From NCBI GenBank assembly GCA_031549085.1, contig JAVBQL010000001.1:119486-183485 (forward strand): a stretch of 64,000 nucleotides of DNA. The letters run 5' to 3'. Source of the DNA: Spirochaetota bacterium. Lineage in GTDB: Bacteria > Spirochaetota > GWE2-31-10 > MWDO01. The notes under the pieces are model-generated. The model was given only the letters and a program-made list of their open reading frames with translations, searched no databases and was not told the DNA's origin. Of this stretch, positions 11,831 through 19,035 are shown piece by piece. How positions within the stretch are numbered: position 1 is the stretch's first letter; every line of letters begins with the position of its first letter. The position numbers were made by a program, and so were the translations under genes.

Positions 11831-11884
11831 TAAGCTTTTTGTGTAGCTTCATATTAATGATAATTAAATACAAGTAATCAAAAT

Positions 11885-11921
11885 AAAAAAAGTGAGGTTA
11901 AAAAATAACCTCACTTTTTTT
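11885..11921. terminator. Intrinsic terminator, probably bidirectional, after the GatA-AspRS gene
   Basis: AAAAAAAGTGAGGTTA-AAAAA-TAACCTCACTTTTTTT, about 15 nt from the stop codon at 11936. Confidence 0.8.
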
Positions 11922-11935
11922 ACTTTTTTTTAAAT

Positions 11936-14743
11936 TTATGGAGAAACTCTACCTATATCTCTTGGGAATAGACACGCCTCTCTGACATTTGATAGTCCAA
12001 GTAGTTTCATAGTAAATCTTTCAAGTCCCATCCCCAATCCGCCATGTGGACACATTCCAAACTTGAATACACTTAGATACTCTTTAAAGCTCTCGGGATT
12101 TACTCCAAAATCAATCATATTGTTCTTTAGCATCTCATATTCATGAATTCTCTGTCCGCCTGTTGTTATCTCAAGCCCCTTATACAAAAGATCAAAAGAT
12201 CTAGTATAGCCTGGCAATCTCTCATCAGGCATTGCATACACTGGTCTCTTTTTTATAGGGTAGCCAAGGATATAGACAAAAGGAGAATCATATCTCTTCT
12301 GTATATAGTCACATACAGTTCGTTCGCCCTCAGGAGAGAGATCTCCGTCAAGATCCTTAACTCCCTCACGAGCAGCAATATCAAGCGCCTCTATAAAGTG
12401 GATCTTTGGAAATTTCTCAGGGATAACAATATCTTCACCAAATACATCTTTTATCAATGTACCATATTTTTCTTTAATATTGGTAAGAATATATTTAATT
12501 AAAGATTCTTGTATATTAACAAGTGTTAGTTCAGAATCTATGAAGCCCATCTCAAAATCGAGAGATACATACTCATTTAGATGTCTAATCGTATTGTGAA
12601 TCTCTGCCCTAAAGACCGGCCCAACCTCAAACACCCTCTCAAAACCACTTCCAACCATAGTCTGCTTATAGAACTGCGGAGATTGTGCCAAGAAAGCCGC
12701 TCTATCAAAGTATTTCAACTCAAAAACGTTACTTCCCCCCTCTGTCCCGCTTGATACAATCTTTGATGTCTTTATCTCTGTGAAGTCATTATTTCTCAAA
12801 AACTCACCGAATAGTCTAACTATTTCACTCTGTATCTTAAAGACTGTCAAAATCTTTGGCATTCTAACACTGATCATTCTATCATCTAGAAGTACTGGAA
12901 GGCTTATCTCCTCATATTTACCATTTATAGAGATTGGAAGCTCTGCATTTGAGTGTCCTAGAATCTTAATTTTTGAAGCTCTAACCTCGATGCCATTAAA
13001 TGGACTCTTTGGCTCTTTGACAACAGTGCCATGAACATCAATAACTGTCTCAAGGTGAAGCTTCTCTGAAAGATTGTTCTCAAAGACAACTTGAGTAAAA
13101 CCACCTCTGTCACGCAGAACAATGAATTCTATTCCGCCAAGCTTTTGAATTTTATGAATCCAACCCTTAACAACAACCTCTTTTCCAATATATTCTGGAA
13201 GCTTTGAAGACAACACTCTTCTGCTATCAACAATTGGAGCATTATAAGAGTCTGATATCTTTTTAATATCATCTGAACTATATTTTATTGACTCTTTTAC
13301 CTCTTCAAACTCTTTTTTTTTGATTATTACTCTCTTCTCTCTCTTTTTAAGAGCCTTTATCTTTTTTGGATCAATATTTTTATCTATTTTAACCTCTGAA
13401 AAGATCTTATCAGCAGCACCAATAACAGTTAGGTCTGAAAACTGCTTTCCAACAAGCTCTATTCCAAATGGAGTATCATCAATGGTATCCACTGGAATCG
13501 CAGCTGACGGTGAACCAATTAGGTTTGCTATCAAAGATGAAGCAACTGATGGATAATCAACATTAGAGAGATTTAGGTCATTAAAAGCAGGAAGAATAAC
13601 AAGATCATACTTCTCAAATATAGCATCAAACTTCTGCTTGATTAATGTTCTAACCTTTTGTGCCTTTTTGAAATATTTATCATAGTTGACACTGCTTAAC
13701 ATCAAGTTTCCAAGCATAATCTCTCTCTTTACATCAAAACCAAAGCCCTGATCTCTTGTATCAAAGAGCATATCATTGTATGTCACTTGGTTTGATGCTC
13801 TAAAACCATAGTTTACACCATCATACTTGCCCAAACTTGATGAACTCTCAGCAAAAGCTATTATCTTATATGTAGCAACCAACTCTGAAACAAGATCAAA
13901 ATCAACCTCATCAACAGTTATACCCATATTTTTAATAAGAGAGAGTGCTTTGTTAAATGAGTTTTTCACTTTGGCATCCAAAGGAAGACTCTTTATTGAT
14001 GCGATCTTTAATGACTTAAACTCTTTAGCAGGAGACAGCTTTAGATTATCAGCTCCATATGTAGAAGAGTCATATCTATCCTCTCCCTTTAAGATATTTA
14101 ACAACGTGGCAGCTCCTGATAGATCTGAAGAGGCAAAAGAGACTCTATCCAATGATGGAGCATTGCTTACAACACCATTGCCCGAAACCAAAGATGGTGT
14201 TGGCAAGAAAGATACTTGATTATTTGAAGTAATAAAAAATCTGTTTTTACCAGTATCAAGAGAGACACTTAACACCCCCATATCCAAAGCAACACCACTT
14301 GCTGCACCTATTGTTGAGAGCTTTGTGTTATATGGGTTTACTGATATATGTTCTGTTGAACCAAAATCAAACTCCAAAGTTGTTGACTTTCCAACAACAA
14401 TTCCGCCAGCCTCTTTTATCCTCTTTACTATAGTAGATTCAAAGATTGGCATATAGTCAGAGAGCATTTTGCTTCCGCATGTTGTTGGATAGTTCATATC
14501 ATGTATGTTGTCAGCTATGATAATAGGAAGCCCATCGATATCGCTTAATGGCTTGTTCTCTCTCCATCTCTTATCTGATAGAGCCGCTCTATTAATTAAT
14601 TCATCTTTATTGCCGAAAATCACAAAGGACTCTAAAAAGATATCAAACTCCTCGATTTGATTGAGAGTCTTTTTCATAATCTCTTCACAAGAAGTTTTTT
14701 TAGACTTTAAGTCTTCTTTCAATTGATAAAAACTCTTTTCCAT
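11936..14743 (-). CDS. aspS: Fusion of a GatA-like amidase domain (catalytically degenerate, aa ~1-450) and a short-type, probably non-discriminating aspartyl-tRNA synthetase (aa ~508-935)
   Basis: N half shows GatA signatures (AESSSSLGKYDGVNYG, GFGFDVKREIMLG, YFKKAQKVRTLI). C half shows the OB fold KGWIHKIQKLGGIEFIVLRDRGG, LAQSPQFYKQ, motif 2 FRAEIHNTIRHLNEY and motif 3 PHGGLGMGLERF. One uninterrupted ORF. Confidence 0.92.
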   Translation of the reverse strand: MEKSFYQLKEDLKSKKTSCEEIMKKTLNQIEEFDIFLESFVIFGNKDELINRAALSDKRWRENKPLSDIDGLPIIIADNIHDMNYPTTCGSKMLSDYMPIFESTIVKRIKEAGGIVVGKSTTLEFDFGSTEHISVNPYNTKLSTIGAASGVALDMGVLSVSLDTGKNRFFITSNNQVSFLPTPSLVSGNGVVSNAPSLDRVSFASSDLSGAATLLNILKGEDRYDSSTYGADNLKLSPAKEFKSLKIASIKSLPLDAKVKNSFNKALSLIKNMGITVDEVDFDLVSELVATYKIIAFAESSSSLGKYDGVNYGFRASNQVTYNDMLFDTRDQGFGFDVKREIMLGNLMLSSVNYDKYFKKAQKVRTLIKQKFDAIFEKYDLVILPAFNDLNLSNVDYPSVASSLIANLIGSPSAAIPVDTIDDTPFGIELVGKQFSDLTVIGAADKIFSEVKIDKNIDPKKIKALKKREKRVIIKKKEFEEVKESIKYSSDDIKKISDSYNAPIVDSRRVLSSKLPEYIGKEVVVKGWIHKIQKLGGIEFIVLRDRGGFTQVVFENNLSEKLHLETVIDVHGTVVKEPKSPFNGIEVRASKIKILGHSNAELPISINGKYEEISLPVLLDDRMISVRMPKILTVFKIQSEIVRLFGEFLRNNDFTEIKTSKIVSSGTEGGSNVFELKYFDRAAFLAQSPQFYKQTMVGSGFERVFEVGPVFRAEIHNTIRHLNEYVSLDFEMGFIDSELTLVNIQESLIKYILTNIKEKYGTLIKDVFGEDIVIPEKFPKIHFIEALDIAAREGVKDLDGDLSPEGERTVCDYIQKRYDSPFVYILGYPIKKRPVYAMPDERLPGYTRSFDLLYKGLEITTGGQRIHEYEMLKNNMIDFGVNPESFKEYLSVFKFGMCPHGGLGMGLERFTMKLLGLSNVREACLFPRDIGRVSP

Positions 14744-15762: not shown

Positions 15763-16109
15763 ATATATTAAACATACTTCCTTAAAAAACATATTAAAAA
15801 ATAACTTAACAAAAATGTATACTATAATAAAAGTATACCCTCTAAAGCCATAATACTAAAACTATTTCGAGTTGTCAAAAAAATAATAGCTAAATTTAGT
15901 GGACTTTTACCTATCTTTTTTATTAAACTATATATATACACTCAAACTGAACAATAAGGGGCAAAATAGATATAAAATAATTTAACATTAATATACAATT
16001 TTATATAAACAAATAATTTGACATATTCAAATATATTTATTATCTTTTGTTTAAAGAAAGTGTTGTTTGCTAAATATATAAAGTATAAAATATGATTTTG
16101 GAGGTTTTT

Positions 16110-17234
16110 ATGAAAAAAACTTTGGTGTTCATATTTTTGATGTTTGCAGTTACATTTGTTACCTTTTCCAGCGAAAAAGTAAGAGGTGTAACTTCTACAA
16201 AGGTTTTAGTTTTGCCATTCACTATAGGTGAAGGGGTCAGCAAAGAGTACTCAAATATTGCTAATGAGGCCTTCTCTATCGCAATATCAAAATCTAAAAA
16301 ATTTGAGATTGTCCTAACAAAGACAGAGCAAACAGCAAAGAGAAATGATCTTGGCGAGGTTGAACAGAAGAACAACGATTCAATCAATACTGAGCTTGCG
16401 AAATTTTATGGGGCAAAAATTGTCTTCTCTGGAAGCATAAATGAGATTGATGGTGCATACAGCATCATAATCAAGGGGATAGAGATAGAGACAAAGCTTC
16501 TAAGGTATGCTGAACGTGGTATGTGTGCAAGCCAAGCAGAGATAATATCCACTGTAGAGACTATTGCGTATAAAATTGCAAATATATCTCCATCTAGAGA
16601 GAGCTTTAATGAGATGTCAAAAGATGAGATAATAGAGAGAGCTGATGAAGTATATAGAGGAGAGACAGTAGTAGAGCCAGAGGCAACTCTGCCTAAAGAG
16701 AAAGAACAATCTTATCATGATGCAAACTATATAACAAGCTTCAACAACAGTGATAAAAAATATATAAGAAAATATATAGATCCAACGGGAACTGATATAT
16801 TTGACCTTGATGCAATGAGAAAACTTCATAAAAAACATCTAAATGCTGGAAATGCACTTTTAGGTTGGGGTATTGCATTCTCTATCATTGGGCAAGTTGC
16901 TCTAGTTGGTTTGATTGGGCTTAATGTTTATCAATATCGTTATGGATACTACTACTATGATGATTATGGAAACAGCAATAGCTACAATCGAAGAAATATG
17001 GCCTACTATATAGATGGAGGAAAAGTTGCACTATCAATTATAACTCCTATATTTCTAGTTCTATCACTCTTCTTTATGCCATTCTCATCAATTCCATACT
17101 GGCATGCAAACAAGGTAAAGAGGATCGCCCTAAAAGCAAATGGAAAAAATAGCTGGTCATTCTTGGAGAACAGTGCTCCATTTATTAACTACTCTGATGA
17201 TAAAATTGGGATTGGACTAACTGTTAGAATATAA
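16110..17234 (+). CDS. Exported/membrane protein, paralogue 1 (N-terminal CsgG/TolB-N-like alpha/beta domain plus hydrophobic hairpin)
   Basis: GAGG RBS before ATG 16110; signal peptide; VLVLPF...FSIAISKSKKFE; module shared with the next two genes. The domain call is by resemblance only. Confidence 0.75.
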   Translation: MKKTLVFIFLMFAVTFVTFSSEKVRGVTSTKVLVLPFTIGEGVSKEYSNIANEAFSIAISKSKKFEIVLTKTEQTAKRNDLGEVEQKNNDSINTELAKFYGAKIVFSGSINEIDGAYSIIIKGIEIETKLLRYAERGMCASQAEIISTVETIAYKIANISPSRESFNEMSKDEIIERADEVYRGETVVEPEATLPKEKEQSYHDANYITSFNNSDKKYIRKYIDPTGTDIFDLDAMRKLHKKHLNAGNALLGWGIAFSIIGQVALVGLIGLNVYQYRYGYYYYDDYGNSNSYNRRNMAYYIDGGKVALSIITPIFLVLSLFFMPFSSIPYWHANKVKRIALKANGKNSWSFLENSAPFINYSDDKIGIGLTVRI

Positions 17235-17256
17235 AAATAGATAATATAATATCAAC

Positions 17257-17293
17257 AAAAAAAGCTTCTTGAAAAGAACAAGAGGCTTTTTTT
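17257..17293. terminator. Intrinsic terminator
   Basis: AAAAAAAGCTTCTT-loop-AAGAGGCTTTTTTT downstream of the stop at 17234. Confidence 0.75.
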
Positions 17294-17401
17294 ATTATAC
17301 AAGTTGTAATTGTAAAAATTGTTGACTAAAGATCAATGATAATGGATAATGAGCTTATATCTAAAAAAAAATGGTATCTAATTTGGAGATTACCCTTTAT
17401 T

Positions 17402-17938
17402 ATGCATAAAATTTTGTTGTCTGTTTTTATTATACTTTTATTTACTGGCAAAATTTTTGGTAGTGAAAAGAGTGATAATAGAGAGAATGAAGAACCCTCA
17501 TACATTAATATAAAATTTAGTGATAGTGAAGAAAAGTATATAGAAAAATATTTGAAGCCTAAAGGTGTTGAACTATCTGATGTACCAAAACTATGGGATC
17601 TATATAGAAAACATAAGATTATGGCTGGAATATTTTTGGGTTTTGGAATATTTTTCACCGCAGCAACACAAATTGCAACGTTTGGACTAATTTTAGTCTT
17701 ATTTTTTAATGTAATAATTTTTGCTTCAGTTATAGCAGTTCTAGTCACGTCCCTTGCAGCCTCTATAATATTTATCGTTGCAGCCGCAATAAACTATTGG
17801 TGTGCTGGTCAAAACAAAGCAATCTCTAAAAAAGTTAGAAGGGCCAAAAGGACAATGACACTTTGGGATGAGAGAGACACTTTTATGAATTATAGTTACA
17901 ATAAAATTGATTTTGAAATATTATCTATCAATTTATAA
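17402..17938 (+). CDS. Exported/membrane protein, paralogue 2 (lacks the N-terminal domain)
   Basis: GGAG before ATG 17402 (MHKILLS); FSDSEEKYIEKYLKPKG module, long hydrophobic stretch, NYSYNKIDFEILSINL end. Confidence 0.75.
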   Translation: MHKILLSVFIILLFTGKIFGSEKSDNRENEEPSYINIKFSDSEEKYIEKYLKPKGVELSDVPKLWDLYRKHKIMAGIFLGFGIFFTAATQIATFGLILVLFFNVIIFASVIAVLVTSLAASIIFIVAAAINYWCAGQNKAISKKVRRAKRTMTLWDERDTFMNYSYNKIDFEILSINL

Positions 17939-17973
17939 TAAAAAAATTTAAAATAGGTTTTATGGAGGAGTAT

Positions 17974-19035
17974 ATGAAAAAGATACTTGTATCTATCTGT
18001 ATAATATTTGTGATTATGCCAGCTCTTTTTGGTAATGAAAAATCAAAAAACAGCTCATCAGTAAAGGTTCTAATATTACCATTCTCAACAGGAGGCAATG
18101 TAAATAAACAGTATGGGGAGATTGCTGAAAAAACGTTCTCATCATCAATTTCAAAATCCAAAAATTTTGAAGCCATTACATTTAAAGATGAGAACATTGA
18201 AAATAGTGAAAAGCAGGAGCAAAACGACTCTACAAATATAGATATTGCTAAATTCTATGGAGCAGAAATTCTCTTTTATGGTGATATAAACAATCTTAAC
18301 AACAGCTACACAATAACAGTACGTGGAGTGGATGTCAATTCAAAAACAACTGATTACATAGAGAGGGGGGTCTTCTCTAATAAAGATGAGCTAATCTCTG
18401 TTACTGACTCCATTGCAAAAAAGATAAACAGCAATTTTATTGCTAAAAATAGCAAAACAGCAGATAAATTTTCACTGCAATCTGAAAATGACTATGAGCT
18501 CTACAAACAGGAGAAGGCATCAGGCAAACTTCAAAACGATACAGATTTTAATAAGAGTGAAAAGACCTATATAAGAAAGTACCTATACCCTGCTGATGTA
18601 AATATCTTTGATATAGATGAGATGGAGGGGCTCTATGTTAAACAGAAGAGAGCAGGAAATGGTCTCTTGGCTGGAGCAATCATATCCTCTGCTGTTGGAC
18701 AGCTGGCACTTGTTGGATATATTTTTACAAGTATATTTACACCTATGTCATATGGTATGCCTATTGCCTACCTATTTATGGTTGCTTTTACCAGCCCTGT
18801 ATATGGACTTATGATAATTGGCAATTTGCTGTTGGGACTTATGGCCTTTACACTGATGACACTTCCATTTGTTCTTATTCCACTTGCAGCAGTTGCCTAC
18901 TGGCATGCCAATAATATTAAGAAGATTACTGAAAAAACTCATGGAGAGGATATCTTCTCTGGTCTAGAGAAGAGAAACCTACTTATAAATGATAGTGATA
19001 AGATAAGTTTTGATATGTTCTCTGTTAGGTTATAG
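17974..19035 (+). CDS. Exported/membrane protein, paralogue 3
   Basis: GGAGGAG RBS before ATG 17974; VLILPF...FSSSISKSKNFE; FNKSEKTYIRKYLYP; YWHAN. Confidence 0.8.
   Translation: MKKILVSICIIFVIMPALFGNEKSKNSSSVKVLILPFSTGGNVNKQYGEIAEKTFSSSISKSKNFEAITFKDENIENSEKQEQNDSTNIDIAKFYGAEILFYGDINNLNNSYTITVRGVDVNSKTTDYIERGVFSNKDELISVTDSIAKKINSNFIAKNSKTADKFSLQSENDYELYKQEKASGKLQNDTDFNKSEKTYIRKYLYPADVNIFDIDEMEGLYVKQKRAGNGLLAGAIISSAVGQLALVGYIFTSIFTPMSYGMPIAYLFMVAFTSPVYGLMIIGNLLLGLMAFTLMTLPFVLIPLAAVAYWHANNIKKITEKTHGEDIFSGLEKRNLLINDSDKISFDMFSVRL

Follow-up and report, generated by a model that had tools for sequence, protein, structure and literature searches.

The GatA half of P0001, a natural GatA-AspRS fusion protein encoded in the 64,000-nucleotide stretch of Spirochaetota DNA analysed here (the window), is probably a glutaminase-dead pseudo-amidase, a view supported by the loss of its catalytic Lys and nucleophile Ser, of the GGSS loop and of two out of the three residues that bind Gln. 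Among the 67 members of the fusion family, only P0001 lacks a catalytically intact GatA half. With modest confidence, we favour the reading that the presence of other GatA capacity in the cell permitted this loss and that the domain most likely persists as a structural or tethering part of the AspRS polypeptide, with putative docking on GatC-GatB. The sample is one genome, represented by a MAG-like assembly that is 88% complete.

Results

Architecture of P0001

The open reading frame and its parts are listed in Table 1. Pfam matches along P0001 were PF01425 (residues 21–440), PF01336 (523–595) and PF00152 (618–929), and the protein has the GatA-linker-AspRS layout of the fusion family together with the conserved linker helix. 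Alignment A1 shows little or no variation at I493, S497 and Y500 of the linker; the AF2 model places a helix at residues 490–499, and its pLDDT is low at 466–487. Separate translation of AspRS was considered and dropped, there being no internal ATG around the start of the AspRS domain. Unlike the arrangement in many relatives, gatC-gatB is absent downstream of P0001. No RNA elements from Rfam were found within the window, and a promoter scan gave no useful signal, with 18 sites versus 14.7 expected.

Table 1 Features of P0001 and its flank (positions within the window; family, GatA-AspRS fusion family).
Feature	Position	Strand	Basis
P0001, single 935-aa ORF: GatA-like domain, linker and archaeal-type ND-AspRS	11936..14743	−	ORF list, translation, Pfam
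P0001 stop codon	11936-11938	−	
GatA-like domain, putative pseudo-amidase, residues 1–455	13379..14743	−	TIGR00132, 2df4_A, Foldseek, family columns, ML branch
Ala77 codon where the catalytic Lys is expected (S. aureus Lys79)	14513..14515	−	IIIADNI vs family (I/V)A(V/I/L)KDN(I/M), 66/66 orthologues
Collapsed Gly/Ser loop K141-L-S143-T-I-G146	14306..14323	−	family: (V/I)PGGSSGGSA
D163-T-G-K-N167-R168, remnant of DTGGS(I/V)R	14240..14257	−	DTGGS(I/V)R in 66/66 orthologues
L180-P-T, remnant of KPTYG	14198..14206	−	family alignment
Glu341 where the Gln-carboxylate-binding Arg is expected (S. aureus Arg358)	13721..13723	−	2df4_A alignment; R341E
Lys/Glu-rich linker, residues 456–507, ending in the family-conserved helix YSxxxIKKISDSY	13223..13378	−	
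Archaeal-type non-discriminating AspRS domain, intact, residues 508–935	11939..13222	−	NF003483, conserved columns, Foldseek
Terminator-like hairpin immediately past the P0001 stop	11880..11926	−	

Loss of catalytic and glutamine-binding residues

Positions 14201–14530 of the window (minus strand) translate to residues 72–181 of P0001, LPIIIADNI...NPYNTKLSTIGAASG...SLDTGKNRFF...SFLP. We compared the motifs by means of a HMMER alignment to S. aureus GatA (2df4_A, E 7e-62) and a 67-member family alignment. A sequence-only reading of this region had proposed that the fused domain lost the Ser-cisSer-Lys triad of GatA. Its observation that Ala77 replaces the Lys of IAIKDNI was borne out by both alignments, as was the change of KPT to LPT, with KPTYG corresponding to LPTPS and the further changes Y183P and G184S. 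The reported collapse of PGGSSGGS to KLSTIG was traced to a 4-residue deletion that takes out VPGG before SSGG and leaves S143-T-I-G-A; the AF2 pLDDT is below 50 at residues 141–143. The reading of DTGGSIR as DTGKNR, with the nucleophile gone, was likewise correct: the motif aligns as DTGKN-R, with one residue deleted and Asn167 in place of S. aureus Ser178. The proposed loss of the triad therefore holds for the substituted Lys and nucleophile Ser, together with the collapsed Gly-rich loop, but not for the invariant cis-Ser column of alignment A1 (S. aureus Ser154), at which Ser143 is still present. The alignments revealed no Lys or Ser in P0001 at the Lys79 or Ser178 columns or at adjoining positions, and the complete triad is lacking.

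The Gln-binding residues of GatA have been named as Tyr309, Arg358 and Asp425 (bioRxiv 10.1101/733030); this preprint on Tse8 was the sole source by which we confirmed the catalytic triad and substrate residues. In addition to the substitution at Arg358, P0001 lacks the equivalent of Asp425, with Val400 at this position of the family alignment and no Asp anywhere in the segment. The equivalent of Tyr309 is retained as Tyr292, so that two of the three residues are gone.

P0001 as an outlier within the fusion family

The GatA-AspRS fusion family comprises approximately 67 full-length members, mostly from Spirochaetota MAGs and also from Ca. Uabimicrobium amorphum. Our search of the literature found no paper on natural GatA-AspRS fusions, and P0001 and its relatives are annotated merely as 'GatA'. 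Each of the motifs (the Lys motif, GGSSGGS and DTGGS(I/V)R) is intact in all 66 other full-length fusions, and, judged from these alignments, the motif loss in P0001 is far beyond what chance would be expected to produce. Near-invariant columns were retained at 94 of 159 positions (59%) in the GatA domain versus 158 of 167 (94.6%) in the AspRS domain, with the latter including QSPQ, FRAE and GLGxGxER; every other member retains at least 93%. The 65 changed near-invariant positions of the GatA domain (41%) have a mean BLOSUM62 score of −0.47, and the domain carries five in-frame deletions and has lost approximately 25 residues. The loss is uneven, with 27 of 59 conserved columns kept in residues 101–200 versus 67 of 100 elsewhere (Fisher p = 0.012).

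Identity of P0001 to its orthologues is 0.365 for the GatA domain and 0.603 for the AspRS domain, a ratio of 0.61; all other pairs average 0.94, and none is below 0.81. The end branches of P0001 in the ML trees are 3.57 for the GatA domain (median 0.27) and 0.43 for the AspRS domain, the GatA half thus evolving approximately eight times as fast as its own AspRS half. At the level of sequence, the retention of only 59% of near-invariant columns shows a GatA domain under apparently strongly relaxed constraint.

The AspRS domain is 68% identical to its nearest counterparts in the fusion family, and the ML tree places the GatA domain, weakly, with the GatA-AspRS fusions. We rejected replacement of the NH2-terminal domain by one from a separate family of dead GatA proteins. 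Among standalone proteins, the best matches are ordinary GatAs with at most 36% identity, compared with up to 40% for fused GatA domains; given that no standalone GatA exceeds 36%, the domain decayed in place. No homologue of P0001 above approximately 53% identity was found in a set of 5.8 billion proteins or in the genomes of 40 relatives. The fusion is labile within the family: genome G001 has a stop past the amidase domain and is without a fused-type AspRS.

Fold of the GatA half and integrity of the AspRS half

The GatA half scored 299.3 bits against the GatA equivalog profile TIGR00132, below the cut-off of 481.1, and it matched positions 1–444 of the 445 in PF01425 (E 2.3e-57). The amidase-signature fold indicated by PF01425 is also predicted by the AF2 model, for which Foldseek gave TM scores of 0.82–0.86 to GatA chains, with 0.84–0.86 for 2df4_A, 3h0l_A and 3kfu_H; this model is biased by the active homologues in its input alignment. 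The COOH-terminal GatA segments were found to lie close to consensus, as the sequence-only reading had stated. The dead GatA domain, which is full-length, thus appears in the model to be still folded.

The AspRS half exceeded the cut-offs of both NF003483 (529.4 versus 353 bits) and TIGR00458 (417.1 versus 368.4 bits), and Foldseek matched it to T. thermophilus ND-AspRS (1n9w) and to the transamidosome 3kfu, among others. The genome contains tRNA-Asn(GTT). The family name, the fusion to an AdT subunit and the absence of AsnRS from the assembly suggest that this half probably charges tRNA(Asn) in addition to tRNA(Asp).

Other AdT components in the genome and in relatives

The suspicion that a separate active gatA exists elsewhere proved correct: a standalone gene at C23:176932-178320 encodes a protein that scores 494.7 bits against TIGR00132, above the cut-off, with its triad intact. 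In an ML tree, this standalone GatA is sister to that of genome G004, a sister genome that likewise carries a conventional standalone GatA. The genome also has standalone gatB (C10), standalone gatC (C31) and a second AspRS. The expected partner of the fusion, a GatC-GatB fusion of 591 amino acids, is encoded at C17:10167-11939, unlinked from P0001; the genome accordingly holds two gatB genes, and 155 of the 175 columns conserved in GatB are preserved in the copy inside the GatC-GatB fusion. GatC-GatB fusions are present in 16 of 19 relatives of the same order and are encoded directly downstream of gatA-aspS in eight of them. The losses at Arg358 and Asp425, the single-outlier status, the relaxed constraint and this second AdT set including GatC-GatB all extend beyond the sequence-only reading.

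Searches of the 88%-complete assembly identified no AsnRS, GlnRS or AsnB, and AdT activity is therefore needed; an AsnRS could be encoded in the 12% that the assembly lacks. AdT has been shown to accept NH4Cl, which bypasses the glutaminase (PMC4027206).

Discussion

In the reading that we favour, P0001 is an orthologue of a widespread GatA-AspRS fusion that relatives pair with a GatC-GatB fusion, often encoded next to it. In this lineage the GatA half would have become glutaminase-dead, with the AspRS half still functioning as an Asp-tRNA(Asp/Asn) synthetase. A separate working GatA apparently rendered the lost activity dispensable, with the triad-bearing standalone GatA, GatB and GatC able to supply Gln-dependent amidation; such redundancy, followed by relaxed selection, is what we infer. 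Given that the domain is seemingly folded and full-length, with its losses concentrated in the amidase-signature region, it was most likely kept as a structural module. It would most plausibly still dock on GatC-GatB so that Asp-tRNA(Asn) passes to GatB, and the amide nitrogen might come from the enzyme containing standalone GatA or from free ammonia. The intact reading frame cannot be taken to show that the domain functions, since a stop or frameshift anywhere in it would abolish the downstream AspRS as well. The loss of 41% of near-invariant positions is heavy and could include interface residues, which counts against this reading; the unlinked gatC-gatB, the single genome, the bias of the AF2 model and the lack of a relative closer than approximately 53% do so as well. 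In a stronger form that we consider rather unlikely, the pseudo-GatA half would clamp AspRS to GatC-GatB in a two-polypeptide, glutaminase-less Asn-transamidosome, with free ammonia arriving through the gutted pocket and tunnel and the standalone GatCAB serving Gln-tRNA(Gln). Sister genomes retain the active form of the fusion.

The GatA half might instead be a functionless relic, a possibility that deserves weight although we do not expect it to be correct. The redundant domain would then be drifting without binding GatB or GatC, GatC-GatB would work with the standalone GatA, and the GatA half would persist only because it precedes an essential AspRS in the same reading frame, so that stops and frameshifts are purged. 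The eightfold acceleration relative to the AspRS domain, the changes at 41% of near-invariant columns, the five in-frame deletions, the separation from gatC-gatB, the lability of the fusion in the family (as in G001) and the presence of a standalone GatA all point in this direction. Uniform neutral decay, however, does not predict the uneven loss of conserved sites (p = 0.012), and the domain is short by just approximately 25 residues despite the usual deletion bias of bacteria, still scores 299 bits as GatA and has a predicted fold with a TM score of about 0.85. It has also kept 36–40% identity, on a branch along which the constrained AspRS domain has undergone 0.43 changes per site.

Clustering of changes in the active-site region would also suit a neofunctionalised domain, in which rapid adaptive evolution remodelled the glutaminase pocket for capture of ammonia or ammonium, for a regulatory ligand or for tRNA. 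This we consider improbable: the new residues are shared by no relative, so that no newly conserved motif is apparent, and the substitutions are spread over the domain and are on average non-conservative. It is very improbable indeed that P0001 is a still-active amidase with alternative residues or an artefact of assembly or sequencing. Ser143 remains in the cis-Ser column, but neither Lys nor Ser is available at or beside the Lys79 and Ser178 columns, a deletion has removed the oxyanion/Gly loop and the counterparts of Arg358 and Asp425 are lost. The reading frame is unbroken on a 187-kb contig, and 65 conserved-site substitutions accompanied by in-frame deletions are unlike the pattern of sequencing errors.

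The Asn-transamidosomes of T. thermophilus (ND-AspRS2, GatCAB and tRNA(Asn); 3KFU) and P. aeruginosa (4WJ3) bring together the same four modules, AspRS, GatA, GatB and GatC, in the same pathway, and Foldseek matched the AspRS half of P0001 to chains of 1n9w and 3kfu, and its GatA half to 3kfu_H and 4wj3_A. Here, in contrast to these complexes, AspRS and the GatA module form one polypeptide, as do GatC and GatB; moreover, residues for glutaminase activity on which the known complexes depend are missing from the GatA module of P0001. Relative to its own family, P0001 is typical in layout, linker motif and AspRS and differs in its lost motifs and in the absence of an adjacent gatC-gatB. The P. 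aeruginosa T6SS effector Tse8, which is GatA-like and has been suggested to dock into the transamidosome (bioRxiv 10.1101/733030), has a GatA-like amidase fold and a role in interaction with the AdT complex rather than Gln hydrolysis, and Tyr309, Arg358 and Asp425 are not conserved in it. It differs from P0001 in that its Ser-cisSer-Lys triad is intact, it is secreted as a toxin and it has no aaRS fused to it. AspRS is also linked covalently to AdT subunits in natural AspRS-GatC (NCBIfam NF009460/PRK12820) and GatB-AspRS (for example, P0075, 957 amino acids) fusions, which differ from P0001 in fusion partner and order.

The amidase-like domain of plant Toc64/OM64 resembles that of P0001 in belonging to the amidase-signature group, in having lost its catalytic residues and in being kept inside a multidomain protein, although Toc64/OM64 is eukaryotic, membrane-anchored, fused to TPRs and unrelated to tRNA amidation.

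The plain label 'GatA' on P0001 and its relatives should be treated with caution in annotation. Together, the GatA-AspRS and GatC-GatB fusions resemble a natural hard-wired transamidosome, and P0001 would constitute a natural experiment in which the glutaminase of such a scaffold has been knocked out, alongside active versions in sister genomes and, within the same cell, a conventional GatCAB. If the pseudo-amidase domain does not dock, P0001 would provide a clean case of the domains of a fused enzyme decaying independently after redundancy. If it does dock, tethering by GatA would be separable from catalysis, and AdT would be able to use another nitrogen source in vivo.

Results

Residues of the fused GatA domain

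P0001, the GatA/AspRS fusion protein of the window, was compared with S. aureus GatA (2df4_A, E 7e-62) and within an alignment of 67 full-length members of the fusion family. The residues quoted in the sequence-only reading exactly matched residues 72–181, as translated from window positions 14201–14530 on the minus strand, and both alignments confirmed the changes that it had described: S. aureus Lys79 is replaced by Ala77; the Gly/Ser loop has collapsed, with VPGG deleted and SSGGS reading STIGA; DTGGSIR reads DTGKN-R, the nucleophile Ser178 being replaced by Asn167; and KPTYG reads LPTPS. The claim that the entire Ser-cisSer-Lys triad is lost held for the Lys and the nucleophile, but the cis-Ser column retains Ser143, so that two triad residues are substituted and the loop of the third has collapsed. 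Among the glutamine-binding residues of S. aureus GatA, Tyr309, Arg358, and Asp425 (bioRxiv 10.1101/733030), only the Tyr survives in P0001, with Arg replaced by Glu341 and the Asp segment lacking Asp. As judged from these alignments, the loss of GatA motifs is robust and extends somewhat further than previously described.

The COOH-terminal half of P0001 was assigned to aspartate--tRNA(Asn) ligase (NCBIfam NF003483; 529 bits versus a cut-off of 353), and the NH2-terminal half was GatA-like, scoring 299 bits with the GatA equivalog model TIGR00132, well below its cut-off of 481. A terminator-like hairpin lies 3' of the stop codon. The end of the linker (residues ~490–505; window 13223–13270) carries a short helix, YSxxxIKKISDSY, that is common to the whole fusion family and is kept in P0001; this helix may act as a hinge or extend the AspRS anticodon-binding domain at its NH2 terminus. 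Elsewhere in the window, positions 16092–19035 (plus strand) encode three tandem membrane-protein paralogues (380, 200, and 357 amino acids) with common NH2- and COOH-terminal motifs flanking a variable hydrophobic stretch.

Location of P0001, its domains, and tRNA amidation components elsewhere in the same genome (C, contig; L, locus)
Feature	Location	Strand	Evidence
P0001, GatA/AspRS fusion ORF, 935 aa	window 11936–14743	minus	ORF list, translation
Amidase domain of P0001	residues 21–440		Pfam, E 2.3e-57
OB anticodon-binding domain of P0001	residues 523–595		Pfam
Class II D/K/N synthetase core of P0001	residues 618–929		Pfam
Standalone GatA	C23:176932–178320 (L003 8927–10357)		TIGR00132, 494.7 vs 481.1
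Standalone GatB	C10
Standalone GatC	C31
GatC-GatB fusion, 591 aa	C17:10167–11939 (L029)
Second AspRS, standalone, archaeal-type	C17:86300–87577		495.6 bits

Comparison with the fusion family

Full-length P0001 has about 70 homologues that share its GatA-linker-AspRS architecture (42–53% identity), mainly from Spirochaetota MAGs but also from Ca. Uabimicrobium amorphum and one Chrysiogenales fragment; all are labeled simply as GatA in databases. The Lys, GGSSGGS, and DTGGS(I/V)R motifs are intact in 66 of the 66 other full-length fusions. Mean identity of P0001 to these proteins was 36.5% for the GatA domain and 60.3% for the AspRS domain, a ratio of 0.61, whereas the ratio for all pairs without P0001 averaged 0.94 and was never below 0.81. 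For columns at least 95% conserved among the other members, P0001 retained 94 of 159 (59%) in GatA and 158 of 167 (94.6%) in AspRS, compared with at least 93% in both domains for every other member. In maximum-likelihood trees, the end branch of P0001 measured 3.57 changes per site for the GatA domain (median, 0.27), where it grouped weakly with same-family fusions, and 0.43 for the AspRS domain. P0001, from one genome, is by these sequence measures an outlier within an active fusion family.

A search with the NH2-terminal domain alone yielded no standalone match above 36% identity, and those obtained were ordinary GatAs; replacement by another GatA was therefore ruled out, and the domain decayed in place. 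A same-family genome (G001, C87:2649–4046, L051) encodes a fusion-type GatA of 490 amino acids that stops just past the amidase domain and has DADGS in place of DTGGS as its nucleophile motif, and a fused-type AspRS was not detected in G001. The fusion is therefore evolutionarily labile.

Other amidation genes

The assembly containing the window (C30:119486–183485) comprises 2.68 Mb in 33 contigs and is 88% complete. It does encode the separate GatA that had been suspected, with K, GGSSGGS, and DTGGSVR intact. This protein barely exceeds the TIGR00132 cut-off, has a long branch (1.59 versus 0.21 for its G004 sister), and is not adjacent to gatB or gatC. No AsnRS, GlnRS, or AsnB above threshold was detected in this assembly, and both tRNA-Asn(GTT) and tRNA-Gln(TTG) were found; the genome, as assembled, thus leaves the cell reliant on tRNA-dependent amidation to provide both amide amino acids. 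A bona fide AsnRS occurs in each of the sister genomes G002 and G004 (696 and 676 bits; L053, L054). Either the AsnRS gene lies in the absent 12% of the assembly, or the lineage has come to depend wholly on the indirect pathway.

A GatC-GatB fusion of ~595 amino acids was present in 16 of 19 same-order relatives (L030–L045). In eight (G005, G008, G010, G011, G013, G015, G018, and G019) gatA-aspS is immediately followed by this gene in the same orientation, and the pair forms a two-gene, four-domain operon, a "hard-wired transamidosome," for which we found no published description. Several relatives, including G002, G008, and G011, gave no other GatA or GatB match, so the fused pair is the only tRNA-dependent amidotransferase (AdT) there. 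Others, including G004 and family f3, carry a conventional gatA-gatB pair beside the fused system, and the standalone GatA of the present genome is sister to that of G004 (support 96/91). The double system is therefore older than this lineage, and the fused copy lost its glutaminase at a time when that activity was redundant. In the GatC-GatB of this genome, the most divergent of 17 compared, the conserved residue is present at 155 of 175 columns for GatB and at 10 of 12 for GatC, with GLEVH, RIHxEEDAGK, and PLIEIVxEPD preserved; on this basis the protein looks functional. In G003 (same family, 93% complete), searches for GatA and GatB gave no match, and nothing was seen beyond one standalone AspRS and one AsnRS-like gene; the whole AdT system thus appears dispensable in some relatives.

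Discussion

The GatA half of P0001 is very probably unable to hydrolyze glutamine while its AspRS half is active, as predicted from their residues. A redundant glutaminase that came under relaxed selection, and so would have lost its catalytic residues, is the likeliest history. The earlier interpretation as a whole is partly supported. We somewhat favor a structural role, most plausibly as a putative tether of AspRS to GatC-GatB. The main rival, a functionless relic shielded only by the AspRS reading frame, is less probable. The intact ORF bears little on it, since the essential AspRS downstream would itself be lost with any stop or frameshift. Against a relic, only ~25 residues have been lost from the GatA domain, it remains recognizable as GatA at 299 bits, and its model, which was built on an alignment of active homologues, has a predicted GatA-like fold (TMt 0.82–0.86 to 2df4_A, 3h0l_A, 3kfu_H, and 4wj3_A; pLDDT mostly 70–90, with low-confidence patches at the collapsed loop [123–143], residues 301–350, and an 8-residue deletion around 389–399). 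Losses of conserved sites are also nonuniform, with 27 of 59 columns kept in residues 101–200 versus 67 of 100 in the rest of the domain (p = 0.012, Fisher test). Together these features argue for residual constraint on the GatA half. Its acquisition of a new function is unlikely, and residual amidase activity or an artefact highly improbable.

The bacterial Asn-transamidosome (3KFU, 4WJ3) consists of the same parts and serves the same pathway. AspRS-GatC (NF009460) and GatB-AspRS (for example, P0075) fusions, which likewise link AspRS covalently to an AdT subunit, are already in databases; our literature search turned up no description of a GatA-AspRS fusion or of a GatA lacking the triad. 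The closest published case of a GatA-like protein with a proposed role in docking instead of glutamine hydrolysis is Tse8 (bioRxiv 10.1101/733030). Homologues of P0001 (P0075–P0093, P0102–P0106) also included GatB-AspRS proteins of ~957 amino acids (PF02934+PF02637+PF00152) and AspRS of ~600 amino acids with a YbaK/ProX-type deacylase domain (PF04073).

If the GatA half is indeed a tether, it would, though glutaminase-dead, keep AspRS held on GatC-GatB, so that Asp-tRNA(Asn) would be handed to GatB. Nitrogen for amidation would then be supplied by the enzyme containing the standalone GatA or by free ammonia, a source on which AdTs can draw if the glutaminase is bypassed (PMC4027206).
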